Shown: positions 5,831 through 44,473 of the stretch, piece after piece | Layout: each line of letters starts with the position of its first letter | Numbering within the stretch: position 1 is the stretch's first letter | Assembly: GCA_034722055.1 (NCBI GenBank) | Contig: JAYENL010000154.1 | Coordinates: 24,444-80,841 of the forward strand | Origin: Armatimonadota bacterium | GTDB taxonomy: Bacteria; Armatimonadota; Zipacnadia; Zipacnadales; UBA5352 | Direction of reading: 5' to 3' | Length of the DNA stretch: 56,398 nt | Position numbers and translations under genes: made by a program | Notes under the pieces: generated by a model | What the model saw: only the letters and a program-made list of their open reading frames with translations | Database searches by the model: none | Told to the model about the DNA's origin: nothing

Positions 5831-8800
5831 ATGAGGCGCGTCACGGTTGCACTCATGCTCCTGCTGCTCCCGACGATGGCGGTCGCACAGGAGCCGCGAC
5901 TGCTGTTCTACCTCTCGCTCGACGAGACCGCTCGAGCGGCGTGGGCCGCCGGCGAGACTCCCGTCGGCGGCGCCTCAGCCGCCGATGTCATCCTCTATGA
6001 GCTGGCCGGGCGCTTCGAGGACGGCCGCGTCGGACGGGGCCGGCTGTTTGAGAGGGGTGGGGTGGAGTATCTCGCCGAGGGCAACCTCAACCGCGAGCGA
6101 GGCACGCTCGCATTGTGGGCGAAGATCGGCTGGGACGGCACCCGTGAGGACCTTTACTGCACGTTCTTTGGCATGGACGAGTGGGGGCTGCTCTACAAGT
6201 ACACCGACCAGACCCTCCTCACCTTCGGCTGGATCAAGTCCGACGGGCAGTTCGACTACGGCTGCACCGCCGACATCGCCCGCTGGCGCGCCGGGCAGTG
6301 GCACCACATCGCCATCACCTGGGACGCGCCGGCCGGCGTGCGCCACATCTACCTCGACGGCGCGCTCGCCGCGGAAGGCGGTATCCCCTCGATGGGCGAG
6401 GGCGATCCCCGCATGTCCGTGGGCATCAGCTACACCAACAGCCACCCCGCCCGCTCAGTGATCGATGAGCTCTACATCTGGGACCGGCCGCTGACGGCGG
6501 AGCAGATCGCGCAGGTGCGAGCCGCCGGCCTGGCCGGTGAGCGGGCGTGGGAGCTGCCTCCCGGCGCCGGAGCCGCCGAGGATCAGTTGCAGCCGCCCGC
6601 CGGCGAGAGGCCGCCGCTGCCGGGGCAGGTGGACTGGAGCCTCGATGACGCCGAGCGCCTCTCGAGCGTCACCCGCCTGCGCGTCTGCCTCAACGGCCTC
6701 TGGCGCTTCCACCCGGATGCTGACAGCGATGACGGCTGGTGCCTGCTGCGCGTTCCCGGCGTGTGGACTTCGCCAAGCTACGTGGTGCGCGATGCCGACT
6801 TCCAGCCCGTCAGCCGCTGGGGCGGCAAGCCTCTCCGCGAGTGGCATCGCGCCTGGTACGAGCGCACCTTCGAGCTCCCGGATGACTGGCCCGACGGCCG
6901 GCAGTACGTGCTGGGGCTGGACTCGGTGCGCAGCGTTGGCGAGGTCTTCCTCAACGGCCGGCGCATCGGCCGCGCGCGGGAGTACGAGCGCGCTCGGTTC
7001 GACGTCAGCGAGATGCTCGAGCCCGATGGTGAGAACCTGCTGCAGGTCCACGTGCTGGGGCTGGGCGGAGGCTGGAGCGCCATGCGCGGCATCGACGCCG
7101 ACGTCTGGCTGGAGGCGCGCCCGCCCGGCGGTGTGCCGAAGCTCTCACACGTCGCCCTCCGCCCGCGCGTGAGCCAGGGCCTGCTGGAGGCGGGAGCCTA
7201 CTTCGACCGTGGCGCCGGGCGGGCGGCGGTCCAGGTCGAGATCGCCGACGCTGGCGGCGAGGTCGTCCGATCGCTGACCGGCCCGGTGCAGCCGGTGGCA
7301 GGGGACTCCATCATCCTGGCGATCGAGTGGCCCGATGCGCACCTGTGGACGCCGGCCGACCCCTACCTGTACTCGGCGACGGTCCGCCTGGTCGATGGCG
7401 ATGGCCGTGTCCTGGATGAGCTGCCCCCGGAACGCTTCGGCATGAGGGAGCTCACGATTCGCGACGGGGACTTCTACCTCAACGGTGTGAAGATCCACCT
7501 CGTCGGCCAGGCCTCCCCACCCTTCGGCCAGATCAGCTTCTGCGCGGCGGAGGAGTACATCCGGGAGTGGTATCGGCGCCTCAGAGCGGTGGGCTGCTTT
7601 GCGGTCCGTGAGTACACCGGCGCCTGGCGGGCCGGCTACCGGTGCGTGTGGCGCGAGCTCTACTACGATATCGCCGACGAGATGGGCATGATCATCTTCT
7701 CGCACGTGCCGGGCGCGGGCAACCTCTGGCAGCAGATCGATGATGAGCGCGTGCGCGAGGGCCTGCACCGCCGCATCGCCGACTACGTGGCGCGATACGG
7801 CAACCACGCCTGCTGCGCCATGTGGTTCCAGCACTTCAACACTGGCGCCTACACCGGGGACATCCGCCCGGACTGGATGGATGGCTCTCATCCGCCGGAC
7901 GAGCATCCGGAGATGCGCCATGCCCTTTTCGCCCGCCATGCCGCCATGCGATGGTGCGAGGAGCAGCTTCGGGAGATCGACCGCGACGCGAGGCCCATCT
8001 TTCACCACGCCGCCGGCGACTTCGGCGAGGTCTACACCTGCAACGCCTACCTCAACTTCGACATCCCGCTGCAGGAGCGCGAGGAGTGGCCGTCAGCCTG
8101 GGCGCAGGTGCGCCACAAGCCGCTGATGCCCGTCGAGACCGGCTTCCCCTGCATCCTGAGCTGGTACCAGGAGCGCCACGGTTCGCTCGCCGACGTCTAC
8201 GCCTCGGAGCCGCTGTTCGAGGAGTACGCGGCGGCGACGCTCGGCGACCGCCCGTATGAGGCGCTGCCCGACGACGCAATGGATATCATCAAGCCCGGCG
8301 AGTGGCACTGCAACCTGGATCGGCTGAAGTACGGGCTGCCCAGCTACCAGCAGCTCAAGGAGGTGTGGGGCGAGCGGACGGTGCGCTCCTGGCGCACCTG
8401 GGGGATCTCGCACTGCCAGCACGTGGAGTACCGCGACTGCTGGGAGTACGAGCGGGTGCCGGTGGAACTGTCCCTGCCCGGGCCGAAGCAGTTCGGCCTG
8501 TCCTTCGACGCCGATGAGCCGACGATCCAGCGCGCCACCAGACTCACGCCGCTGGGCGAGGCCATGCAGCGGGCGAACATGCCGGTGCTGGCCTACATCG
8601 CCGGGCCCCCGGACAACTGGCCGGCCAAGGACCACGCCTTCTTCGCCGGCGAGCGCTTCGAGCGGACGCTGGTGGCCATCAATGACCGCTTCGAGCCGCT
8701 GCCCTGCAGGCTGCACTGGGCGCTGCGCGACGCGGACGGGGCGCGGCTGGACGGCGGCTCCCTCCACCTCACGCTGCAGCCAGGGGAGATCAGCCGCACG

Positions 8801-10216
8801 CCTATCTCACTGGTCGCGCCGGAGGTGGCGAGGCGGACAGAGCTGACGATGACCCTGGACCTCAGAGCAAACGGGCGTAGGCTTTCCGAGGACGAGCTGC
8901 CAGTGCAGGTGTGGCCGAGGCCGCCGCGGCCGGAGGTCGCGGAGGCGCGCGTGGGACTTATCGACGCCGGCCACGGCACCGCCGGGGCGCTGCGGGAGGC
9001 GGGCGTGGCGGCCGAGCCGGTCGGGCCCGCGACCGACCTGCAGCGGCTGGACGTGCTGATCGTGGGCGCGAGGTCCTTCGACGCGCACCTGCTCGGCGAG
9101 CTGCACGCTCAGGAGGCAATGCAGGGCGGCCTGCGCGTGATCGTCTTCGAACAGACACAGCCCTACGGCGGGCTGCTGCTGGATGACCCCAACGCCCGGC
9201 ACGTCTTCATCCGCGCGCCCGAGCACCCCCTGCTGGCCGGCCTGACCGACGCCGATCTGGCCGACTGGCGCGGCCAGAGCACGCTGACCGAGCCCTACCC
9301 TGTGGCCGAGGACCTGGAGGGGCGCTACCCCGAGGAGTTCTGGCGGTGGAGCAACAACGGCACCGTGGCCAGCTTCGCCTTCGAAAAGCCCCAGCGGGGC
9401 GGGTTCGAGGTGCTGGCCGATTGCAGCTTCGACAGCATGTACACCCCGCTGCTGGCGTGGCGCATCGGCCGCGGCCGGGCGCTGCTCTGCCAGCTTGATG
9501 TCACCAGCCGCTACGGGCGCGACCCCGTCGCCACACTGCTCGTGCATCGGATGCTGGAGTGGGCCGCTGGCGCCGGCCTGGCGCCCGAGCCGGGAGGCGT
9601 GGCCTACCTGGGCGGCGAGCAGGGCCGCGCGCTGCTGTGGGAGCTGGGCTGCGAGGTGGAGCGTGTACCGTCCTCGGCCGGGGCGGCGAATGCGGCGCTG
9701 TTGGTCATCGGCGAGGTCGAGGACGCGACAACGCTCTCCACCGCGCCCCGGCCGCCAGCCCTGATGCTGCTCCCCCAGGCCCTGCCGGACGTCGCCGAGG
9801 CGCTGGGGCTGGCGACTGAGCCGGCGCACTTCTTCCGCCTGCAGCGGCCCCCGACGCCGAATCCTGCCTTCCGCGGGCTCTGTGCGGCGGACCTGTATCT
9901 GAAGCAGTGGGTGGAGGCGCCGGCGCTGGTCGGCGAGGACTTGGCCGTGACTGCACCGGCGGTCGCGGGCCGAACCACGGTCGGCGGCTCGACGGTCTAC
10001 ATCTGCGGCATCGACCCCGGCGTGATCCAGGGCCAGCGCCAGCGCGCCAAGGCCCTCCGGCTGGTCGCCACGATCCTCAGCAACGCCGCCGCCGAGGCCA
10101 ACGTATCGCTGCCAGCACTGGATATCGCCGCCGGTTCCGTGGAGGTCGCCTCGGAGGGCTCGCCGTACGCTCTGGAGGCCCTCACCTACAATCCCTACGA
10201 GTACCGCCGGTGGTAG
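5831..10216 (+). CDS. giant secreted LamG/ConA-like + glycoside hydrolase family 2-like multi-domain protein
   Basis: 1461 aa, signal peptide MRRVTVALMLLLLPTMAVAQE. N-terminal LamG-like jelly-roll (WHHIAITWDAPAGVRHIYLDGAL...DELYIWDRPLTAEQI). Followed by GH2-like sugar-binding and TIM-barrel segments (LNGLWRFHP..., FLNGRRIGRAREYERARFDVSEML, GMIIFSHVPG...). Assignment is from motif memory only. Confidence 0.7.
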   Translation: MRRVTVALMLLLLPTMAVAQEPRLLFYLSLDETARAAWAAGETPVGGASAADVILYELAGRFEDGRVGRGRLFERGGVEYLAEGNLNRERGTLALWAKIGWDGTREDLYCTFFGMDEWGLLYKYTDQTLLTFGWIKSDGQFDYGCTADIARWRAGQWHHIAITWDAPAGVRHIYLDGALAAEGGIPSMGEGDPRMSVGISYTNSHPARSVIDELYIWDRPLTAEQIAQVRAAGLAGERAWELPPGAGAAEDQLQPPAGERPPLPGQVDWSLDDAERLSSVTRLRVCLNGLWRFHPDADSDDGWCLLRVPGVWTSPSYVVRDADFQPVSRWGGKPLREWHRAWYERTFELPDDWPDGRQYVLGLDSVRSVGEVFLNGRRIGRAREYERARFDVSEMLEPDGENLLQVHVLGLGGGWSAMRGIDADVWLEARPPGGVPKLSHVALRPRVSQGLLEAGAYFDRGAGRAAVQVEIADAGGEVVRSLTGPVQPVAGDSIILAIEWPDAHLWTPADPYLYSATVRLVDGDGRVLDELPPERFGMRELTIRDGDFYLNGVKIHLVGQASPPFGQISFCAAEEYIREWYRRLRAVGCFAVREYTGAWRAGYRCVWRELYYDIADEMGMIIFSHVPGAGNLWQQIDDERVREGLHRRIADYVARYGNHACCAMWFQHFNTGAYTGDIRPDWMDGSHPPDEHPEMRHALFARHAAMRWCEEQLREIDRDARPIFHHAAGDFGEVYTCNAYLNFDIPLQEREEWPSAWAQVRHKPLMPVETGFPCILSWYQERHGSLADVYASEPLFEEYAAATLGDRPYEALPDDAMDIIKPGEWHCNLDRLKYGLPSYQQLKEVWGERTVRSWRTWGISHCQHVEYRDCWEYERVPVELSLPGPKQFGLSFDADEPTIQRATRLTPLGEAMQRANMPVLAYIAGPPDNWPAKDHAFFAGERFERTLVAINDRFEPLPCRLHWALRDADGARLDGGSLHLTLQPGEISRTPISLVAPEVARRTELTMTLDLRANGRRLSEDELPVQVWPRPPRPEVAEARVGLIDAGHGTAGALREAGVAAEPVGPATDLQRLDVLIVGARSFDAHLLGELHAQEAMQGGLRVIVFEQTQPYGGLLLDDPNARHVFIRAPEHPLLAGLTDADLADWRGQSTLTEPYPVAEDLEGRYPEEFWRWSNNGTVASFAFEKPQRGGFEVLADCSFDSMYTPLLAWRIGRGRALLCQLDVTSRYGRDPVATLLVHRMLEWAAGAGLAPEPGGVAYLGGEQGRALLWELGCEVERVPSSAGAANAALLVIGEVEDATTLSTAPRPPALMLLPQALPDVAEALGLATEPAHFFRLQRPPTPNPAFRGLCAADLYLKQWVEAPALVGEDLAVTAPAVAGRTTVGGSTVYICGIDPGVIQGQRQRAKALRLVATILSNAAAEANVSLPALDIAAGSVEVASEGSPYALEALTYNPYEYRRW

Positions 10217-10229
10217 GGAGCCCCGATAG

Positions 10230-10900
10230 CCTTGGGAGGCGGGCGCCCCCGCCCGTTTCTCCTGGCGACAACATTCGCGTAGGCCGGGCTTCCAGCCCGG
10301 ACAGACGGCGCACGCACAGGAGTGTGCGTGCCACGGAACGACACGGCATCCGCCAGCCGTTGACCGTTCGCCGTCGAGCGTCACGCACGCAAGGGGCCTT
10401 TCGGTGGGACGGACACTCCTGTCCGTCCGCCGTCCTGCGCAGGCCCGAAAGCCACCCGAAGAAGCGCACGCGCCCGCCCGCTTCTCTCGCACATCCTCCG
10501 CGTAGGCCGGGCTTCCAGCCCGCCAGCGACAGAAGAAGCACCCCAGCGGAGGGGCCGCCTGAGGGCGATTGCGCCGCAATCGCGCAAAGTCGGCCCGGCG
10601 GGTGATTGCCAGGCCTGGGCCGGCTTCGTCGGGCCTGACGGCCCTCCTCAGGACGGCCCCTCCGACGGCCTCTCGTCGTGCCATCCAAGCCGATGACCCA
10701 CCCCGACGCGCGCGACGGGCGGAGCCGGTGCAAGGCTCACCTCTCCGCTCGCTTCTCCTCGCACATCCTCCGCGTAGGCCGGGCTTCCAGCCCGGCAGCG
10801 ACAGACGAGGCATGGATAGAGACTAGATGTCTCCGGTACGCGTGCCACGCAATGACGCCTTGGGGCGCCTGCGCAAAGAAGGTAACCGCGCGCCGCAGCC
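10230..10900. repeat. cluster of at least 4 copies (both orientations) of a ~90-130 nt structured intergenic repeat; core CGCGTAGGCCGGGCTTCCAGCCCG + variable hairpin + GTGCCACGNAAYGRCG
   Basis: Forward cores start at ~10276, ~10500 and ~10773. A partial inverted copy lies at ~10375-10470. Each contains hairpin 1 (CCGGGC TTCCA GCCCGG). Hairpin 2 varies compensatorily between copies (GCACGCACA-GGAG-TGTGCGTGC versus GGACGGACA-CTCC-TGTCCGTCC versus GAGAC-TAGAT-GTCTC). The same family occurs at 33328 and 33533. Confidence 0.7.
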
Positions 10901-10962
10901 GAATACCTCACCAGCGCAGACACGGACGGCGGGAGCCGATCCCGCAGGAGTTGAGACACACA

Positions 10963-12264
10963 ATGGCTGAGACACTCGCGATCAAGGGCGGACCAAAGGC
11001 GGTTCAGACCGACACGGGCGATATCTTCTCATGGCCGATCATCACCGAGGAGGACGAGCAGGCCGTCCTGGAGGTCCTGCGGCGGGGAGGCATGTCGGGC
11101 ACGGACGTCACCACCAAGTTCGAGCGGGAGTACGCCGAGTGGCATGACATGGAGTACGCCCTCGGCTGCAGCAGCGGCACGGCCACGCTGCAGTCGGCGA
11201 TGTGGGCCTGCGGAGTGCGGGCGGGCGACGAGATCATCGCCCCCAGCCTCACCTACTGGGCGACCTGCCTGCCGGTCTTCAGCCTCCAGGGGACCATCGT
11301 CTTCGCCGAGGTCGATCCCGACTCCATGTGCCTGGACCCGGACGACATCGAGCATCGCATCACCGACCGCACCAAGGCCATCATCCCCGTGCACTACTGC
11401 GGGCACCCGGCCGACATGGACCCCATCATGGAGATCGCCGAAAGGCACGACCTCTACGTGATCGAAGATGTCTCCCATGCTCATGGCGGGCTCTACAAGG
11501 GCCGGCTGGTGGGCACCATCGGCCACGTGGGCTGCTTCTCGGTGATGAGCGGGAAGTCGCTGGCCGTCGGCGAGGGTGGCATGATCGTCACCAACCACCG
11601 CGACATCTGGGAGCGGTGCATCGCCTGGGGCCACTACGGCCGCACGAGAGGCACGCAGTGGACCGGCGACGTGGAGGTGGAGAACATCACGCTGGACGAG
11701 CTGAAGCCCTTCGTGGGGCTGCCCTGGGGTGGCTACAAGTACCGCATGCACCAGCTCTCCTCCGCGTGCGGCCGGGTGCAGCTCAAACACTACCGGGAGC
11801 GGATGGAGGAGATCCAGAAGGCCATGAACTACTTCTGGGACCTGCTGGAGGACGTTCCCGGGGTGAAGGCCCACCGCCCGCCCAAGGGCTCCGGCTCCAC
11901 CATGGGCGGCTGGTACGCCGCACATGGGCTCTACGTCGAGGAGGAGCTGGACGGGCTGCCCATCGAGACCTTCTGCGAGGCGGTGCGGGAGGAGGGCGTC
12001 TCCACCAGCCCTGGCGCCAACTTCCCGCTGCACCTGCACCCGCTGCTGAACGAGGCGGACATCTACGGCCACGGGGAGCCGACGCGCATCGCCAACTCCG
12101 ACCGCGACCTGCGCCAGCTCGAGGGGAGTCTCCCGGTCACGGAGAGCATGCCCCGGCGCTGTTACAGTATCCCGTGGTTCAAGCACTACCGCCCGGAGAT
12201 CATCGAGGAGCACGCCCTGGGGTTCCGCAAGGTCGCCGAGAACGCCGACCAGCTCATGGAATGA
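10963..12264 (+). CDS. DegT/DnrJ/EryC1/StrS-family PLP-dependent sugar aminotransferase
   Basis: Family-typical layout: substrate-sugar N-terminus, ...IIPVHYCGHPADMD..., DLYVIEDVSHAHGG, SVMSGKSLAVGEGG (candidate PLP-lysine). ATG at 10963 is in frame with a long upstream extension that was rejected. Confidence 0.85.
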   Translation: MAETLAIKGGPKAVQTDTGDIFSWPIITEEDEQAVLEVLRRGGMSGTDVTTKFEREYAEWHDMEYALGCSSGTATLQSAMWACGVRAGDEIIAPSLTYWATCLPVFSLQGTIVFAEVDPDSMCLDPDDIEHRITDRTKAIIPVHYCGHPADMDPIMEIAERHDLYVIEDVSHAHGGLYKGRLVGTIGHVGCFSVMSGKSLAVGEGGMIVTNHRDIWERCIAWGHYGRTRGTQWTGDVEVENITLDELKPFVGLPWGGYKYRMHQLSSACGRVQLKHYRERMEEIQKAMNYFWDLLEDVPGVKAHRPPKGSGSTMGGWYAAHGLYVEEELDGLPIETFCEAVREEGVSTSPGANFPLHLHPLLNEADIYGHGEPTRIANSDRDLRQLEGSLPVTESMPRRCYSIPWFKHYRPEIIEEHALGFRKVAENADQLME

Positions 12265-12371
12265 GGGGAGGCCCTCAGACAGCCGACGACAGCTCGCTCA
12301 GGCAGGGGTATCGAATGCCGGCGCATTGCCCGGCGGTCGCGGCCCCGTGCCGAGCCATTGCCGCGCCGTAT

Positions 12372-12400
12372 GGAGGGGCCGGACCACCGTCCGGCCCGCC
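12372..12400. repeat. REP-like palindromic hairpin GGAGGGGCCGGACCACCGTCCGGCCCGCC (9-bp stem, 4-nt loop) in a convergent intergenic region
   Basis: The same 29-mer (C/T variable in the loop) recurs at ~33226, ~33431 and 44334. This copy is flanked by the shared context TTGCCGCGCCGT. Confidence 0.6.
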
Positions 12401-12411
12401 GTTTCTTGGCA

Positions 12412-18287: not shown

Positions 18288-19409
18288 ATGACGCGAGGTA
18301 TGCCATCAGTGGAAATCCCCCTGGTTGATCTCCAGACCCAGTACCAGCACATCCGCGAGGAGGTCCTGGAGGCGTTCGACGAGGCCCTCACCGGCATGCA
18401 GCTCGTCCTGGGTCCCAATGTGCAGGCGTTCGAGAGGGAGTGGGCCGAGTTCTGCGATGTCGAGCACGCCGTCGGCGTGGGCAGCGGCACGGAGGCGCTG
18501 CACCTGCTGCTCCGTGCCGCCGGAGTCGGTCCCGGCGATGAGGTCATCACAGTCTCCTTCACATTCATCGGCACCATCGAGGCCATTCTGCACGTGGACG
18601 CCACGCCCGTGCTGGTGGACATCGACCCCGAGACGTTCTGCATCGATCCCGAGCAGGTGGCCCGGCGGATCACGCCCAACACCCGCGCCGTCATCCCCGT
18701 GCACCTCTACGGCCATCCCGCGGACATGGACGGGCTGCGCGAGGCCGTGGGCGATCGCGACGTGATGCTGCTGGAGGATGCCGCCCAGGCCCATGGGGCC
18801 CAGTACCGGGGCCGCCGGGTGGGCGGGATCGGTCGCGGGGCCATCTTCAGCTTCTACCTCAGCAAGAACCTGGCCGCGTACGGCGAGGCCGGCGCCGTCA
18901 CCACCGACGGCGCCGACCTGGAGGACCGCGTCCGCTACCTGCGGGTGCATGGCAGTCGGGAGAAGTACGTCCACCGCTACGTGGGCTACAACAGCCGCAT
19001 GGACGAGCTGCAGGCGGCGGTGCTGCGCATCAAGCTCCGGCGCCTGGCGGACTGGAATGAGGCCCGCCGCCGCCACGCCACGCGCTACAACCAGAACCTG
19101 GCCGACCTCGACGTGCAGCTCCCGGTCGAGAGGCCCTGGGCGCGGCACGTCTATCACGTCTACACCATCCGCACCCCGCGCCGGGACGAGCTGGCGGCTG
19201 CCCTGAAGGAGGCGGGCATCGGCCACGCCATCCACTACCGCGTCCCCTCTCACCTGCAGGAGGCCATGGCGCACCTCGGCTACGGCCCCGGCTCCCTCCC
19301 GGAGACGGAGCGCGCCGCCGACCAGGTACTCTCCCTCCCCATGTACCCCGAGCTCACCAACGAGCAGATCGACCGCGTCTGCGAGGTCGTCCACGGCGTG
19401 CTGGGCTGA
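18288..19409 (+). CDS. DegT/DnrJ/EryC1/StrS-family sugar aminotransferase (second copy)
   Basis: LVDLQTQYQHIREEVLEAFDEAL, GSGTEALHL, VIPVHLYGHPADMD, LLEDAAQAHGA, FSFYLSKNLAAYGEAG: canonical DegT/PseC/ArnB-type motifs. The exact start (18288 vs 18300) is uncertain. Confidence 0.85.
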   Translation: MTRGMPSVEIPLVDLQTQYQHIREEVLEAFDEALTGMQLVLGPNVQAFEREWAEFCDVEHAVGVGSGTEALHLLLRAAGVGPGDEVITVSFTFIGTIEAILHVDATPVLVDIDPETFCIDPEQVARRITPNTRAVIPVHLYGHPADMDGLREAVGDRDVMLLEDAAQAHGAQYRGRRVGGIGRGAIFSFYLSKNLAAYGEAGAVTTDGADLEDRVRYLRVHGSREKYVHRYVGYNSRMDELQAAVLRIKLRRLADWNEARRRHATRYNQNLADLDVQLPVERPWARHVYHVYTIRTPRRDELAAALKEAGIGHAIHYRVPSHLQEAMAHLGYGPGSLPETERAADQVLSLPMYPELTNEQIDRVCEVVHGVLG

Positions 19410-27486: not shown

Positions 27487-28515
27487 ATGGCGTTGCTCGA
27501 ATGGTACAACTTGATCTTCGTGGCTCCCGTTGGTCTGGCCGGCGTCTACCTGGTCCTGAGCGCCACGAGCATTGGCGACCTGACCGGGGAGACGGATGTG
27601 GACACTGACGTGGATGCCGACCTCGACCACGACGTGGACCTGGGAATGGACCATGATGTGGACACGGACATGGACCATGACCTGGACCTGGACATGGATC
27701 ATGACGTCGATCTGGACATGGATCACGACGTTGATCTCGACATGGACCATGATGTCGATGTGGACATGGACCATGATGTTGATGTGGGGATGGACCACGA
27801 CCTCGACGTCGATCATGACATCGACATGGATCACGATGTGGATGTCGATCACGACGTTGAGCTCGGCCACGACGTAGACATGGACCATGACGTAGACATG
27901 GACCATGACGTGGACATGGACCACGATGTGGACGTCGGCCACGACGCCGATGTCGGTCACGACGCGGACCTCGGTCACGACGTGGAGGCCGAGCACGATC
28001 TGGAGGCCCACCACGAGGCGACCGTGCACGCCCATGAGCCGTCCCTCTTCCTCCGAGCCCTGTCGGTGCTTGGGTTCGGGAAGGTCCCGCTATCGATCCT
28101 GGGCACCTGTCTGATGGTGCTGTTCGGCGCCACGGGTCTGATCGCCAACGGGCTGTTCGAGCACGTGCTGCCCTGGGAGTGGGCGCCCACGGTCTACGTG
28201 TGGCCGTCACTGGCGCTTGCCGTCTTCGCGTCCCTGACGCTCACCGGCTCCATGGCCCGGGGGCTGCATCGGATTATGCCCACCCGCGAGACCTACGCGG
28301 TGGGCCCCGAGGACCTGGTGGGCCGGGTCGGCGTCCCCATCTACGGCATCAGCGCCGGGCGGCGGGGCGTGGTCCACGTCAAAGATGAGGGTGGCACTCT
28401 GCACCAGGTGATGGGCCGGTCGCTTGAGGGGGACCTCGCCAAGGGCGCAGAGGTCATCCTGGTACGCTACCATCCGAAGGGGGATTACTATGACCTCACA
28501 GCCTCGCCCCTGTAG
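27487..28515 (+). CDS. NfeD-like (YuaF-type) membrane protein with an inserted Asp/His-rich (DHDVDM)n repeat region
   Basis: N-terminal TM helix, then ~23 tandem hexapeptides, then 2-3 TM helices, then a C-terminal OB-fold-like segment (GRVGVPIYGISAGRRGVVHV...GAEVILVRYHP) typical of short NfeD proteins that pair with flotillins. Confidence 0.7.
   Translation: MALLEWYNLIFVAPVGLAGVYLVLSATSIGDLTGETDVDTDVDADLDHDVDLGMDHDVDTDMDHDLDLDMDHDVDLDMDHDVDLDMDHDVDVDMDHDVDVGMDHDLDVDHDIDMDHDVDVDHDVELGHDVDMDHDVDMDHDVDMDHDVDVGHDADVGHDADLGHDVEAEHDLEAHHEATVHAHEPSLFLRALSVLGFGKVPLSILGTCLMVLFGATGLIANGLFEHVLPWEWAPTVYVWPSLALAVFASLTLTGSMARGLHRIMPTRETYAVGPEDLVGRVGVPIYGISAGRRGVVHVKDEGGTLHQVMGRSLEGDLAKGAEVILVRYHPKGDYYDLTASPL
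27592..28012 (+). repeat. in-frame tandem 18-bp repeat (consensus gaccatgacgtggacatg) encoding (M)DHDVD hexapeptides, ~23 units
   Basis: Directly visible in the sequence. Units vary by point substitutions (D/G, V/L/I, M/L/V), giving an Asp/His-rich acidic stretch. Confidence 0.9.
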
Positions 28516-28675: not shown

Positions 28676-30682
28676 ATGGCCCTACCGATAGGAATGGTGT
28701 TGCTGGGCATGGCGCTGGTGATCGGGCCGTGGACGGTCGAGGGCCTGAACCCGATAACACAGATGATCCTCACGGTCATCGGCGCCGGGGTGCTCGTGGC
28801 CTCGGCGGTGCTGATCATCATCGCCAAGCTCTACCAGCGAACCGCCGCCAACGAGGCCTTCGTGCGCACGGGCATGGGGGGACGCTCCGTGGTGCTGGAC
28901 GGCGGCGCCATCGTCATCCCGGTGATGCACAAGACCGTCCCGGTCGTGCTGGAGAGCATGAAGCTGGAGGTGGAGCGCGGGGGCGAGGACGCGCTGATCA
29001 CCCGCGACAACCTCCGCTGCGACATCCGCGCCGAGTTCTACATCAAGGTCCAGGCTGTGAAGGACGACATCCTCAACGCGTCCCGATCGCTCGGCGACCG
29101 GTCCATCAACGCCGCGGCGGTCAGGGACCTGGTCTTCGAGAAGCTGGTCTCCGCCCTGCGCTCAGTCGCGGCCACCCGCGAGCTGGCACAGCTTCACGCC
29201 GAGCGCGACGACTTCGCCACCGCAGTGTCCGAGCTGGTGCGCGAGGACCTCAAGTCCAACGGCCTGACGCTGGAGTCAGTGACCATCTCGCGGCTGGACC
29301 AGACCGACACCTCGCGGCTGAACGAGCAGAACGTGTTCGACGCCCAAGGCCTGCGCAAGATCGCCGAGATCACCCAGCAGGCGCGCGTGGAGCGGAACAT
29401 GTACGAGCGCGACGCCGAGCGCCAGATCACGCAGAAGAACGTGGACACCCGCAAGGAAGTGCTGGACCTGGAGAAGGAGCAGGCTGAGGCCGAGGCCACT
29501 CAGCAGGCGGACGTGGCCATGATCCGCTCCGAGCGGCGCCAGCAGGCCGAGACCTACGACATCGAGCAGCGCCGCATCGTCGAGACCAAGGATATCGACA
29601 AGGAGCGGCAGGTCCAGGAGGCTGGCGTGCAGCGCGACCTGATGGTGAACATCGCCAAGGTCCAGGCGGAGAAGGACCTCATCGCCAAGCAGCAGGAGCA
29701 GCAGACCGCGGACATCCTGCGCAACCAGGCCATCCAGACCGCCGACGTGGAGCGCGAGCGCGCCGTTGAGGTCACGCAGCGCGAGCGGCAGATCGCGGTG
29801 GCCGAGGCCGAGCAGCGCCGCGCCACTGCCGAGCAGGAGCAACTGCTGGCCGAGGCCCAGCGCGAGCAGGCCGAGCAGGAGGTCATCACCGTTGAGGAGG
29901 TCGCCACTGCCGACCGTCAGAAGCAGGTGCAGGTGATCGCCGCCGAGCAGTCGGCCGAGCAGGAGAAGATCAAGGAGCAGATGGAGGCCGACATCGTCGC
30001 CTACAAGAACGCCAAGGTCGCCGAGGGCGAGCAGGAGGCGGCCACCCGCCTCGCCGAGGCCATCCGCACCAAGGCCGAGGCCGAGCGCGACGCCGCCAGA
30101 CTCGCCGCCGAGGGCGAAGAGGCCAAGCAGATGGTGCCTGTCAACGTCAACCGTCAGCAGGTGGCCGTGGACGCCCAGCGCGTGCACGACGTCGATGCCG
30201 CCAGCGTTGAGGTGCTGCGCAGCGAGCTGGCCGCCAAGGCCGAGTACGAGCAGATCTCGGTCGAGCTCGAGAAGGTCCTGGCCGACATCGCGGCCCGCAA
30301 GGACGTCGGGGTCGCCTTCGCCCACTCCGTTGGCGAGGCCCTCAGCCACGCCGACATGAACCTCTACGGAGAGCCCGCGATGCTGGGCACGGCCCTGGAG
30401 TCCTTTGCCAAGGCCGCAGGTGTCAGCGCCTGGGCCGATGGGCTCGTCAGCACACTGCCTGAGGGCACCATCGAGACCGCGGCGTCAACCCTCTCTGGCG
30501 CCTTCCCCCAGCTCCGCGAGGTGCTCGACAACGTCATCGCCGACCACCGCGCGCGCGGTGGCGACGTCGAGAAGGCCGCAGAGGCCTACGCCGAGGCCGA
30601 CGGCGGCTGGGAGGCCGAGGAGCCGGTGAAGGAGAATCCCGGTTCCGCCGAGAAGGGTAACGCGCCCGAGGACCCGAGTTGA
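28676..30682 (+). CDS. floT: flotillin-family (SPFH/band-7) protein with a long EA-rich coiled-coil
   Basis: N-terminal TM + SPFH domain (RTGMGGRSVVLDGGAIVIPVMHKTVPVVLESMKLEV...ITRDNLRCDIRAEFYIKV). Followed by ~350 aa of A/E/Q/R-rich heptads. Confidence 0.85.
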   Translation: MALPIGMVLLGMALVIGPWTVEGLNPITQMILTVIGAGVLVASAVLIIIAKLYQRTAANEAFVRTGMGGRSVVLDGGAIVIPVMHKTVPVVLESMKLEVERGGEDALITRDNLRCDIRAEFYIKVQAVKDDILNASRSLGDRSINAAAVRDLVFEKLVSALRSVAATRELAQLHAERDDFATAVSELVREDLKSNGLTLESVTISRLDQTDTSRLNEQNVFDAQGLRKIAEITQQARVERNMYERDAERQITQKNVDTRKEVLDLEKEQAEAEATQQADVAMIRSERRQQAETYDIEQRRIVETKDIDKERQVQEAGVQRDLMVNIAKVQAEKDLIAKQQEQQTADILRNQAIQTADVERERAVEVTQRERQIAVAEAEQRRATAEQEQLLAEAQREQAEQEVITVEEVATADRQKQVQVIAAEQSAEQEKIKEQMEADIVAYKNAKVAEGEQEAATRLAEAIRTKAEAERDAARLAAEGEEAKQMVPVNVNRQQVAVDAQRVHDVDAASVEVLRSELAAKAEYEQISVELEKVLADIAARKDVGVAFAHSVGEALSHADMNLYGEPAMLGTALESFAKAAGVSAWADGLVSTLPEGTIETAASTLSGAFPQLREVLDNVIADHRARGGDVEKAAEAYAEADGGWEAEEPVKENPGSAEKGNAPEDPS

Positions 30683-33165: not shown

Positions 33166-33213
33166 CGCCCTGACTCGTCTCTCGTACGGAGGGGCGGCCT
33201 GCCCAGGCCGCCC

Positions 33214-33600
33214 GCCGTGCCGTCTGGAGGGGCCGGACCACTGTCCGGCCCGCCGTGCCGTTTGCCGCGCCGTTTGGAGGGGCGCGACTACGTTCGCGCC
33301 CGGCCGTCGCCGCCCGCTCTATCTCACGCGCAGGTCGGGCTTCCAGCCCGACAACGCAAACGACGCACGGACCGAGACCAAAGGTCTCCAGTGTCCGTGC
33401 CACGGAACGGCGGCCTTTGCCGTGCCGTCTGGAGGGGCCGGACCACTGTCCGGCCCGCCGTGCCGTTTGCCGCGCCGTTTGGCGGGGCGCGCCTCCGCTC
33501 GCGCCCGGCCGTTGCCGCCCGGTCTATCTCACGCGTAGGTCGGGCTTCCAGCCCGACAACCCAAACGACCGGCGGGTCTGAAGACGCCGCCGCTCCTATA
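33214..33600. repeat. two tandem copies (period 205 bp) of a composite repeat: REP hairpin + GC hairpin + CGCGYAGGTCGGGCTTCCAGCCCG structured core
   Basis: 33214-33418 and 33419-~33600 are near-identical (GCCGTGCCGTCTGGAGGGGCCGGACCACTGTCCGGCCCGCCGTGCCGTTTGCCGCGCCGTTTGG...). They sit directly upstream of the candidate restriction endonuclease gene. The long ORF 33217..34377 through them is an artefact. Confidence 0.85.
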
Positions 33601-33696
33601 TGTCTTCAGCGTACGCATGCTGCCCCAAAGCCAGTCAGCTTGAAGGGCTGCCCAGCGATCGGTGCGAATGGGGTAGTAAAGCCCCGCGGAGTGTGG

Positions 33697-34377
33697 ATGG
33701 CTCCACGCGAGAGGGATGACATTGTGAACGATGACAGAGATTACAAGACGGCGGCTCTGAAGAACATGGTTGCAAATCGGTTCCAACTGAACTTCAAGCG
33801 CAACGTCGGACCCACCTCACAGTCCATCAGGGAGTGCCAGCCCCGCTCGAGAGATGGGTGGGCAGATTACTACTACGCGAGCGTCCGGCCCCCCAAGCAC
33901 ATCGACGGACTCGGGAGGATCATGTACCAGAAGATCCACGAGGAGATCATTCCTGCACTCCAGAGCATCACGGTCGAGGAGTGCATCGCATACATGCACG
34001 AGCTGGTCATCGACAAGACGTACGATGGATACTGCGCCGAGATTGCTGCAGTGAAGCAGTTCGTCGAGGAGGAGTTGGAAGGCTACGAGGTCCTGCCCGC
34101 GCCTGACGAGGTGGACAGGACACTGGCGGTGGACTACTACATACCCGTCGGCGAGAACTGGGTTGGGTTGCAGATCAAACCTGTCACAGTTGAGCAGATT
34201 CCCAATCTACATGAATGGCAGGAAAGGTGGCGTGAGGGCCATGAGGAGTTCCGACGCCGGTACGGCGGAGGGGTCTTCACGCTGGTGAGTGTCCGCGAGG
34301 GGCGCGACCAGAAGGCACTCCACAATCCCGAGGTCATTCAGGACATCAAGGCTGAGATACAGCGGCTTGAGCAGTGA
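33697..34377 (+). CDS. candidate Type II restriction endonuclease (PD-(D/E)xK-like), partner of the adjacent methyltransferase
   Basis: 226-aa ORF with GC content visibly lower than its neighbours. Convergent with, and overlapping by ~32 bp, the DNA methyltransferase gene. Possible catalytic pattern ...VDYYIPVGENWVGLQIK. No recognised family; the call is by context. Confidence 0.45.
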   Translation: MAPRERDDIVNDDRDYKTAALKNMVANRFQLNFKRNVGPTSQSIRECQPRSRDGWADYYYASVRPPKHIDGLGRIMYQKIHEEIIPALQSITVEECIAYMHELVIDKTYDGYCAEIAAVKQFVEEELEGYEVLPAPDEVDRTLAVDYYIPVGENWVGLQIKPVTVEQIPNLHEWQERWREGHEEFRRRYGGGVFTLVSVREGRDQKALHNPEVIQDIKAEIQRLEQ

Positions 34378-35275
34378 CGTCGCCATCCCGCGGCGCCTCG
34401 CGGGTCTCAAACGTGAGGTCTACCTCGCCGGCATCGAACAGGCTTGCGTCCCCGACGCCGAACTTGTCGCGGATGACCTCCCGGAAGGCCTCGTTGATCT
34501 CGTAGCCCACCGATGAGCGGCCCTCTTCGTGAGCCGCGAGGGCCGTCGTTCCACTCCCCATGAACGGGTCCAGGACCGTGTCTGCCCAGAAGGTGTACAT
34601 TTTGATCAGCCGCCGCGGGATCTCCAGCGGGAACATCGCGACGTGGTCCTCCTGTCGAGCCGGCGGAATGTCATCCCAAACGCCCCTGAACCACCTGGAC
34701 CGCTGCTCTTTGGTGAGCCTGCTCTTCTCCTTTGCCTCGTCGGAGGCAGGGCCGGGCCAATCGCCGCGCTTGCGCAGCAGCAGGATATACTCGTGCTCGT
34801 AGGTGACGTGGCCGTCGCGGGGGTAGTACATGGACCCCATGAGCGTGCAGCCGCCCGTGGTGTTGGTGGTGGACACCTTGCGCCAAATGATGTTGCCCAT
34901 GAAGTCGAAGCCGACCTGGCGGCCGATCACGCTGAGGTCGGCGGGGATGGGCTGGACCCGATACCGCCCGTGCTCGGAGGCGCGCAGGTACTGGTCTCCG
35001 ATGTTAATGGCCATTCGGCATCCGGGGTGCAGGACGCGGTGGCACTCCGCGATGACGCGCTCCATCGACGCCAGATACTCATCGTAGGCTTGGCGGTGAC
35101 CGATCTGGCCGGGATGCTCGTAGTCCTTGATGCACCAGTAGGGAGGGGACGTCACCACCAGATGAACGGACGCGTCTGCCAACTCGCTCATATACTGACT
35201 GTCGCCGAAGATGATGCGATGCTTCTGCGCAGAGTCTGACACAGCGGCCACCTCGTTAGCAGCGGGTCCTGTCAC
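34346..35275 (-). CDS. beta-class DNA amino-methyltransferase (N4-cytosine or N6-adenine); motif IV SPPY precedes motif I FxGSG
   Basis: LVVTSPPYW (motif IV) near the N-terminus, DPFMGSGTT (motif I) near the C-terminus. This is the permuted beta-class order seen in M.PvuII/M.RsrI-type enzymes. Confidence 0.85.
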   Translation of the reverse strand: MTGPAANEVAAVSDSAQKHRIIFGDSQYMSELADASVHLVVTSPPYWCIKDYEHPGQIGHRQAYDEYLASMERVIAECHRVLHPGCRMAINIGDQYLRASEHGRYRVQPIPADLSVIGRQVGFDFMGNIIWRKVSTTNTTGGCTLMGSMYYPRDGHVTYEHEYILLLRKRGDWPGPASDEAKEKSRLTKEQRSRWFRGVWDDIPPARQEDHVAMFPLEIPRRLIKMYTFWADTVLDPFMGSGTTALAAHEEGRSSVGYEINEAFREVIRDKFGVGDASLFDAGEVDLTFETREAPRDGDVTAQAAVSQP

Positions 35276-44150: not shown

Positions 44151-44333
44151 CCGCTCACGTCCGACCGCAACGGGCCTGCCGCATCCGGCGGCAGGCCCGT
44201 TCTCGTGCCGCCTGCACTCTCGGCTGGCCCGCTGAGAGCGTGGTTGCGCCCCTCCCAGCGGCAGAATGGCCGACCGCGCCCCTGAACCGCTGCGCTGCGC
44301 ACCGATTGCCGTCACGCGAGCGCAAGCTCGCGT

Positions 44334-44362
44334 GGAGGGGCCGGACCACCGTCCGGCCCGCC
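44334..44362. repeat. REP-like hairpin GGAGGGGCCGGACCACCGTCCGGCCCGCC (fourth copy), preceded by a second hairpin CGCGAGC-GCAA-GCTCGCG
   Basis: Identical to the 12372 copy. Lies in the tkt-to-oxidoreductase intergenic region. Confidence 0.6.
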
Positions 44363-44473
44363 GTCGTTCTGGCCTGCACCACGCGTTGCTGTGCATGAAG
44401 GCAGGAAACCATCGCGACACGCGGAAGAGGGCCTCTGATGCGGCGCCGACCTGCTCTGCAGAGGAGGACACCG

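Follow-up and report, generated by a model that had tools for sequence, protein, structure and literature searches.

Repetitive extragenic palindromes (REPs) are regarded as non-autonomous elements that are mobilised by REP-associated tyrosine transposases (RAYTs). They are numerous, mostly intergenic, and are often found as pairs of a REP and an inverted REP arranged in tandem, in which form they are known as bacterial interspersed mosaic elements (BIMEs) (PMC8266576). The subject here is a set of palindromic repeats in an Armatimonadota genome, found within a window of 56,398 nucleotides (contig JAYENL010000154.1; G+C about 69%), where they lie in the gap between a GH2-like gene and a DegT gene and again in a second cluster near 33 kb. 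What the region holds is probably a mosaic cluster resembling a BIME and built of palindromic DNA repeats of the REP type, and these repeats represent a lineage-specific example of this known class and not a new small-RNA gene. The observations that carry this reading are the anatomy of the units, the behaviour of their copies, the sub-families of stems, the layout in dimers and clusters, and the absence of the features of a MITE (miniature inverted-repeat transposable element).

The closest described relatives belong to the GTAG-tagged REP super-family surveyed by Di Nocera, De Gregorio and Rocco in 2013 (PMC3733652), whose members are GC-rich stem-loops, with stems of 5-13 bp, that bear an unpaired GTAG (also GTGG or GYAG) at one end. 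Sub-families with alternative complementary stem residues have been documented, and the GTAG-3 and GTAG-14 REPs have complex self-complementary loops (PMC3733652). The copies are present in deep-branching phyla, lie mostly between unidirectional or convergent genes, and occur as singletons, head-to-head dimers, hybrid head-to-head dimers and large clusters which reiterate units together with their flanking DNA (PMC3733652). The tag and the GC-rich stem-loop, the complementary stem sub-families, the singletons, dimers, hybrid dimers and clusters, and the setting between unidirectional or convergent genes all have their counterparts here, a likeness to the 24 published families in the features described for them. 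Head-to-tail tandem arrangement, in contrast, is rare in most of those families and dominant in the present locus. A second relative is the group 3 REPtron of Stenotrophomonas maltophilia (REP_Sm, TnpA_REP), where the REP is a 16-nt perfect palindrome interrupted by 3 nt, with GTAG directly before it (PMC8266576). There the transposase recognises the folded single-stranded hairpin together with its tag.

Anatomy and covariation of the units

Unit A consists of an unpaired GTAG directly 5' of a perfect 16-nt palindrome split by 3 nt, giving a perfect 8-bp stem and a 3-nt loop, with the palindrome reading GTCGGGCT-TCC-AGCCCGAC or GCCGGGCT-TCC-AGCCCGGC in the window. This is exactly the REP_Sm design, although the stem and loop sequences of REP_Sm differ from those of A and no cognate tnpA_REP was found beside A here. 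The core, GTAGG(C/T)CGGGCTTCCAGCCCG, has five copies in the window, all on the + strand (Table 1), three of them between 10.28 and 10.80 kb and two between 33.33 and 33.56 kb, while none of 100 shuffles yielded a match. A first-pass annotation had counted at least three forward copies in the gap and two further ones at 33328 and 33533, and these are all present, the last two with cores at 33330 and 33535. The tag is GTAG in four of the five window copies and GCAG in the other, and in a relaxed search GTAG is far commoner than the variants GTGG and GCAG.

One pair in the stem of unit A covaries. In the search pattern the base after GCCCG and the next base were left free. Among the matches listed the first of these tracks the pyrimidine at position 6, being A where that base is T in 107 of 110 copies and G where it is C in 13 of 17, and the pair at stem position 2 is T:A in 107 copies, C:G in 13 and another combination in 7 (Fisher p = 2e-18, for copies that are not independent). 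The second free base is C in 123 of the 127 listed copies and pairs with the G following the tag. The relaxed search adds G:C and A:T at the covarying position.

Unit B is the second hairpin, set between constant flanks (AACGGC...CACGGAACGGC). The first-pass annotation had assigned this hairpin and its tail to every forward copy, but the tail GTGCCACGNAAYGRCG is found at 10328, 10842 and 33397, that is, after three of the five A copies; the copy at 10502 is followed by different sequence and that at 33535 by a different hairpin (33570-33592). The inverted copy that had been noted in the gap does exist, at 10400-10434, as the second hairpin module only and not as the whole element. Its 35 nt are the reverse complement of 10304-10338 at 86%, and its stem at 10407-10428 shows two compensated differences from the unit at 10310. 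B is likewise found without A in related loci (L110, L111, L024 and L079). In its short form, at 10304-10343, B has a 4-nt GGAG loop and the tail CACGGAACGAC, and faces REP-A copy 1 with the tags outward. In its long form B has an outer stem, GCACGGAC/GTCCGTGC, which is intact in the unit at 33365-33400 but has decayed at 10808-10846, and which encloses a further hairpin, GAGACC-AAA-GGTCTC at 33374-33388 (with the tail CACGGAACGGC at 33401-33411) and GAGAC-TAGAT-GTCTC at 10819-10833. These inner stems had been taken for versions of the second stem, whereas they are extra hairpins nested in its loop.

That the second stem differs between copies and yet stays paired is, by contrast, confirmed by an alignment of 14 copies drawn from the window, from the metagenome-assembled genome (MAG) E05-054, from Zipacnadia and from one metagenome contig. 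In this alignment 87.5% of cells are paired and both sides change in six of the nine outer pairs, values of pairing and covariation that none of 500 shuffles reached, and sliding the register leaves only 20-51% pairing. The compensatory series in the window and its relatives comprises GCACGCACA, GGACGGACA, GCACGGACA, GCACGGGCA, GCACGGGCG and GTGCGGACG, and when perfect hairpins were sought with ..CGGC/..CGAC on one side and CAC../CCAC.. on the other, seven distinct, fully paired stems were obtained. In an RNA transcribed from one strand, G.U is the only mismatch that a stem would be expected to tolerate. The mismatches in the B stems are G.T in five cases and A.C in five, and neither strand is therefore favoured as RNA. 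On its opposite strand B reads GTGG plus the palindrome; across the 14 aligned copies the corresponding CCAC is conserved at 90% or more. With single-stranded DNA folding both the A and the B hairpins are predicted, intact composites having z = -3.9 and -4.0. The sequence after A is ACAACG or CAGCGA and that after B is CACGGAACG, and an intrinsic-terminator test found no T-run directly after either hairpin.

Family C (GGAG + GGGC...GCCC + GCCGT) has seven copies in the window, all on the + strand, each a short distance downstream of a gene on that strand (DegT, M28 peptidase or transketolase). Its inner stems differ (GGGCGGCC, GGGCCGGAC, GGGCGCGA) yet all are paired. The three units at 33188-33307 start 23 nt after the stop codon of the M28 peptidase gene and have GCCGT(T) linkers between them, and the C-like unit at 10548-10596 has a structured loop with the hairpin GCGATTGCG-CCG-CAATCGC at 10565-10583. 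The family is also found in MAG E05-054 (loci L007, L013, L037 and L057). Hairpin D replaces B as the inverted partner of REP-A copy 5, and the A-D pair occurs as well in L052 of E05-054. The palindrome CACGCGAGC-GCAA-GCTCGCGTG recurs after unit A in three E05-054 loci (L060, L013 and L069) and is a fourth palindromic repeat type in these genomes. Some way upstream of the window copy of this palindrome, 19 nt 3' of the transketolase stop codon, a hairpin with a 14-bp stem (44169-44201) is likely to be a terminator.

A linker, GCCGT(T) or AACGGC, recurs around all the palindromic units. Counted over the repeat gaps (10217-10962, 12265-12411, 33166-33620 and 44151-44437), GCCGT has a density of 11.6 per kb and GCCGTT one of 4.3 per kb, compared with 1.7 and 0.2 per kb elsewhere. 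Zipacnadia too has this motif after unit A, in reversed orientation (ACnCCGTTGCC). It is possible that the linker is a cleavage or target site.

Cluster growth and distribution in other genomes

In the window A faces B at 10279-10343 and 33330-33412 and faces D at 33535-33596, and over the whole collection the modules mix, with A beside B, beside D or beside other partners, and B alone. The combination of A and B may be likened to a hybrid head-to-head REP dimer, a hetero-dimer with its tags outward, and B and D would be candidate REPs in BIME-like pairs. The BIMEs of Escherichia coli are built in a similar way, from two different palindromes in inverse orientation joined by short linkers (here AACGGC / GCCGTT), in tandem and between genes. 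However, E. coli REPs have bulged stems, fall into Y, Z1 and Z2 types and are joined by linkers to which IHF or gyrase binds, the window sequences are unrelated to them, and in the present clusters a third family, C, is included in direct orientation. In the REPINs (REP doublets forming hairpins) of Pseudomonas fluorescens a doublet makes one long hairpin, to which the inverted, head-to-head A doublets of Zipacnadia MAGs (L008, L031, L089 and L096), about 26-85 nt apart, bear a resemblance in that they can fold in the same manner. Within the window, A is never paired with an inverted A, and since B and D are not complementary to A the units there are hetero-dimers and not REPINs.

The clusters expanded locally, through tandem duplication of units that measure about 110-270 bp and include flanking DNA. 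For instance, the three A copies of the gap are not three separate insertions but a local tandem triplication in which each unit carries part of the upstream terminator-like hairpin: further copies of the 3' half of that hairpin (10238-10263), at 10461-10486 and 10745-10757, head the tandem units. The tandem periods are 223 and 272 bp in the gap cluster and 205 bp in the 33-kb cluster, where 33419-33569 is 95% identical to 33214-33364.

Tandem arrays of a half-REP (GCGTAGGTCGGGCTTCC, three to four times) that end in one full hairpin are seen in L079, L028, L005 and L052. The L079 array lies at 7700-7800 (minus strand), upstream of a REP at 7869-7889, and in L052 a five-fold GCGCATCCTTCGC repeat immediately precedes the GTAG tag. 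Such arrays suggest slippage or repeated cut-and-join at the 5' side of A.

A scan for the core across one genome per species gave at least 106 loci (designated by L numbers), mostly in Armatimonadota MAGs. At least 27 copies of A occur in 17 loci of E05-054, at least 17, at least 11 and at least 5 in three Candidatus Zipacnadia MAGs, and at least 9 in CSMAG_1176, and the coding regions of the window are 68-79% nucleotide-identical to some of the A-bearing loci. Among the matches listed, 77 of 96 A copies lie outside credible open reading frames (ORFs); credibility was judged by a crude gene caller based on G+C at third codon positions (GC3), and several of the 19 copies called inside, window copy 3 among them, are start-codon artefacts. 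The long ORFs crossing the gap, which the first-pass annotation had dismissed as artefacts, indeed lack the strong third-position G+C bias that is present in the real genes of the window. With respect to flanking genes, the A copies among the matches listed are co-directional in 13 cases, anti-directional in 13, convergent in 8 and divergent in 5.

The A-B composites occupy non-orthologous sites, beside unrelated genes, in different genomes, and a metagenome scan for the composite found only two near-identical contigs that carried one. The genes for the closest DegT proteins (about 85% identity) have other neighbours, and the spacers upstream of them, 117-137 nt long, contain no repeat cluster; this comparison, between loci which are not syntenic and do not make a clean filled and empty pair, fits a lineage-specific expansion. 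A 1630-nt Logan contig of the same organism (SRR26901928, L109), with an identical DegT gene, ends inside REP-A copy 3, and the repeats thus fragment assemblies.

The identical 21-23-nt A, often with a pyrimidine-rich 5' flank, is also present at several distinct sites in MAGs from other phyla. The labels of the MAGs that bear A are Armatimonadota, Poribacteria, Planctomycetota, Verrucomicrobiota, Chloroflexota, Calditrichota and Bacteroidota. The loci include nine in Poribacteria (L030, L046, L066, L072, L081, L086, L100, L101 and L105), with at least six Poribacteria sites in one assembly that has megabase contigs, four in Planctomycetota (L029, L033, L051 and L055), and L063, L065, L073, L082, L090 and others in further MAGs outside Armatimonadota. 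By our own estimate chance would give about one match in the whole collection if base composition were uniform, with a higher number for GC-rich genomes. Either a REP family is shared across these phyla or some of the MAG labels are wrong. A scan of viral contigs for unit A gave two matches only, so that phage are no evident vector, and a literature search for the core sequence returned eukaryotic papers only and nothing relevant.

The mobilising enzyme and competing explanations

What moves the repeats? We infer a mobilising RAYT. In such a system the hairpins would form in single-stranded DNA, where a RAYT/TnpA_REP enzyme of the HUH Y1 type would recognise tag and hairpin and would cut and rejoin beside them. 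In this way the family would spread and be maintained, and neither terminal inverted repeats nor target duplications would be involved. With recognition dependent on the hairpin, a stem mutation would persist only if compensated, and either selection or, within the palindrome, intrastrand template switching could bring the compensation about.

A hidden Markov model (HMM) of RAYTs, built from 120 PF01797 proteins, was run on the window and on related loci. Its sole match is L047:5020-5190 on the minus strand (E = 3.8e-9), at a contig end of the Zipacnadia MAG JALGUI01, which carries at least 11 A copies. The 57-residue C-terminal fragment (..HYIWMNPVRAGLVERPTDWPW..) matches NCBIfam NF047646 REP_Tyr_transpos (E = 3.4e-14) and aligns to a named RAYT (E = 5e-11). 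Two nucleotides after its stop codon lies a B-type unit, AACGGC-GACAGGCC-GGGT-GGCCTGTC-CCACGAACGGC, which has the flanks of B and another perfect stem. In a REPtron a REP would be expected at this position, which here is seen on one flank only of an incomplete gene; further downstream there is a 44-nt tandem repeat. A RAYT consensus, validated by its retrieval of thousands of PF01797 proteins named 'REP-associated tyrosine transposase', gave no match in the related loci, and nor did a motif search. Among the RAYTs from a large protein database none is labelled Armatimonadota or can be linked to REP-A, and a homologue search with the 57-residue fragment produced no candidate.

A number of observations weigh against a REP mosaic. 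No transposase of any kind, RAYT included, was found in the 56-kb window, and none of the RAYT type flanks an A copy in about 0.8 Mb of related DNA. The L047 fragment covers the last 43 of the 146 positions of the NF047646 profile; its score of 53 bits is below the cut-off of 80, as is to be expected of a fragment, and a Pfam search with it gave no match. The standing of B as a tagged REP is by analogy, with the GTAG-20 REPs of Opitutus terrae, whose tag has mutated to GTGG: the opposite strand of B also begins GTGG, but the last G of this tag is the first paired base of the stem. Likewise, the GGAG tag of C is outside the published GTAG variants. The A copies were collected with an exact-core pattern, which biases both their uniformity and their counts. 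Finally, in about 6-7 of 9-10 independent loci the A-B composites run in the same direction as their neighbouring genes, which may leave room for a role at the RNA level.

It is from this orientation, together with the A and C units of the window all following + strand genes, that a structured RNA family would draw part of its support. On that explanation the A-B composites would be small-RNA genes or cis-acting elements of 3' or 5' untranslated regions, with stems under selection for RNA folding; the compensatory changes in the B stems and the conservation, across at least four genomes, of the unpaired spacer AACGGnAAACGGC and tail CACGGAACGGC also point that way, and RNA roles have been proposed for REPs (PMC3733652). 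The first-pass annotation had argued along these lines, and its structured family with compensatory stems is real, but support for passing from covariation to a small-RNA gene is lacking. There is no Rfam match at gathering score anywhere in the window, and even at E <= 1 the two clusters give only chance-level miRNA and viral matches. Promoter-like sites were not found by a scan of the gap, and neither A nor B is followed by a U-tract. G.T equals A.C in the B stems, A is found as often with as against the direction of the genes, and B is inverted within the gap. Moreover, free recombination among the modules is seen (A alone, A-D, B alone), the copies are tandemly duplicated and at non-orthologous sites, and the composite is on only two metagenome contigs. 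All told, an RNA family is improbable. An explanation through ordinary gene-end hairpins, either terminators or stabilisers of mRNA 3' ends, that had been multiplied only locally, through tandem duplication and gene conversion and without a mobilising enzyme, draws on other features: both clusters are tandem (spacings of 223 and 272 bp in one, a 205-bp repeat at 95% identity in the other), the terminator-like hairpin upstream is copied within the units of cluster 1, all C units are just downstream of + strand genes, and no RAYT was found beside an A copy. It is decidedly improbable, since local duplication cannot explain how an identical 23-nt GTAG-tagged A came to stand at dozens of sites that are not linked, across several genomes and even in further phyla. 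A and B lack T-runs, a terminator scan of the + strand of the gap flagged a single, separate hairpin at 10238-10253, and the RAYT fragment abuts a B-type unit.

A MITE was the other origin that had been raised, and it is closer in spirit in so far as REPs are themselves non-autonomous and RAYT-mobilised. In its classical form, however, as a derivative of an insertion sequence with terminal inverted repeats and target-site duplications that is moved in trans by a DDE transposase, it is extremely improbable. The repeats are indeed short, non-coding, multi-copy, intergenic and dispersed at non-orthologous sites, but an inverted-repeat search finds only the internal palindromes and the inverted B, the 5' end (..TCGC GTAGG) is not complementary to the 3' end (CACGGAACGGC), and flanking direct duplications are not visible in the aligned copies. 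The window has no DDE transposase, and the modules occur separately and not as a unit of fixed length. The lack of terminal inverted repeats and of visible target duplication is what is expected of HUH/Y1-type, and not of DDE-type, mobilisation.

Three further candidates were judged on sequence without a dedicated test and set aside: a CRISPR array (no regular spacing and no cas genes), an integron attC site (no GTTRRRY core sites) and a tRNA-like element (a loop of 3-5 nt, not 7).

Within the preferred reading of the region, as a BIME-like mosaic of REPs, a bolder version can be framed in which the A-B hetero-dimer is the replicating unit of an Armatimonadota-specific REPtron with a B-recognising RAYT, and in which the identical A in at least seven phyla marks recent spread between phyla. 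As a whole this version is doubtful. As for RNA, copies that lie downstream of co-oriented genes are, by virtue of that position, probably co-transcribed, and may act as 3' RNA stem-loops in mRNA stability, such that a co-opted RNA role for these units is plausible.

Neighbouring features and implications

The repeat units and the genes that border the gap are collected in Table 1.

Table 1. Positions of the palindromic units and bordering genes in the window
Feature	Position	Strand	Description
GH2-like gene	5831-10216	+	Stop is the left border of the gap
Terminator-like hairpin	10238-10263	+	GGCGGGCGCCCCCGCC plus CGTTTCTCCT; 22 nt 3' of GH2-like stop codon
REP-A copy 1	10279-10301	+	GTAG tag, GCCGGGCT-TCC-AGCCCGG; leader ...ACAACATTCGC before
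B unit, short form	10304-10343	+	Flank GACGGC; perfect 9-bp stem GCACGCACA/TGTGCGTGC at 10310-10331
Inverted B unit without A partner	10400-10434	-	Stem GGACGGACA/TGTCCGTCC at 10407-10428
REP-A copy 2	10502-10524	+	One mismatch in 3' arm (GCCCGCC); no B after
C-like unit	10548-10596	+	GGAG then GGGCCG...CGGCCC
REP-A copy 3	10774-10797	+	55 nt at 10758-10812 95% identical to 10486-10540
B unit, long decayed form	10797-10858	+	Outer stem partly lost; tail GTGCCACGCAATGACG at 10842-10857
DegT gene	10963-12264	+	Start is the right border of the 745-bp gap
REP-C unit	12372-12403	+	GGAG-GGGCCGGAC-CACC-GTCCGGCCC-GCCGTT; between convergent DegT and DUF6785 genes
Three REP-C units	33188-33219, 33226-33257, 33276-33307	+	Inner stems differ, each paired
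REP-A copy 4	33330-33352	+	GCAG tag, stem GTCGGGCT/AGCCCGAC
B unit, long form	33359-33412	+	Outer stem GCACGGAC/GTCCGTGC intact, 33365-33372 with 33393-33400
Two REP-C units	33431-33462, 33481-33512	+	Within second copy of the 205-bp tandem duplication
REP-A copy 5	33535-33557	+	GTAG tag
Hairpin D	33570-33596	+	CGGCGGGTC-TGAA-GACGCCGCCG (33570-33592), then CTCC, the opposite-strand GGAG tag
Palindrome	44313-44334	+	CACGCGAGC-GCAA-GCTCGCGTG; precedes REP-C unit 44334-44365
REP-C unit	44334-44365	+	Downstream of transketolase gene

The window holds a number of other features. Next to the second repeat cluster, at 33700-35275, a restriction-modification pair is encoded: an endonuclease resembling MjaI (Pfam RE_MjaI, E = 2.8e-30), whose true start is near 33.7 kb, and, convergent with it, an N4/N6 DNA methylase (34346-35275, minus strand). 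The G+C of this segment, 0.63-0.655, is below that of the rest of the window, and the segment was therefore probably acquired horizontally; a methylase fragment 75% identical to the one here lies at the end of the Zipacnadia locus L005. A second aminotransferase of the DegT/DnrJ/EryC1 family (18288-19409, +; Pfam E = 4.6e-124) is encoded 6 kb downstream of the first. The ORF at 27487-28515 (+) specifies a predicted membrane protein with a long acidic, His-rich repeat, D-x-D-H-D-V, present about 25 times, with DNA periods of 12, 18 and 24 nt and no Pfam match. It is directly upstream of an SPFH/Band 7 gene (28676-30682), the usual place of NfeD-like partners.

The wider lesson concerns how covariation is read. 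Compensatory changes in the stem of a repeated intergenic hairpin do not by themselves mean an RNA gene, as REP-type DNA palindromes routinely show them. To our knowledge, Armatimonadota is absent from the phyla reported to have GTAG-tagged REPs; with the present repeats this poorly studied phylum, through the class Ca. Zipacnadia and its relatives, joins the hosts of such elements, in a lineage that is unusually modular in having three or four co-occurring types of palindromic unit. Given that these repeats break short-read assemblies and create long spurious ORFs, their recognition improves the annotation of MAGs. If true, the identity of unit A across phyla would be a useful marker for the horizontal movement of REPtrons.

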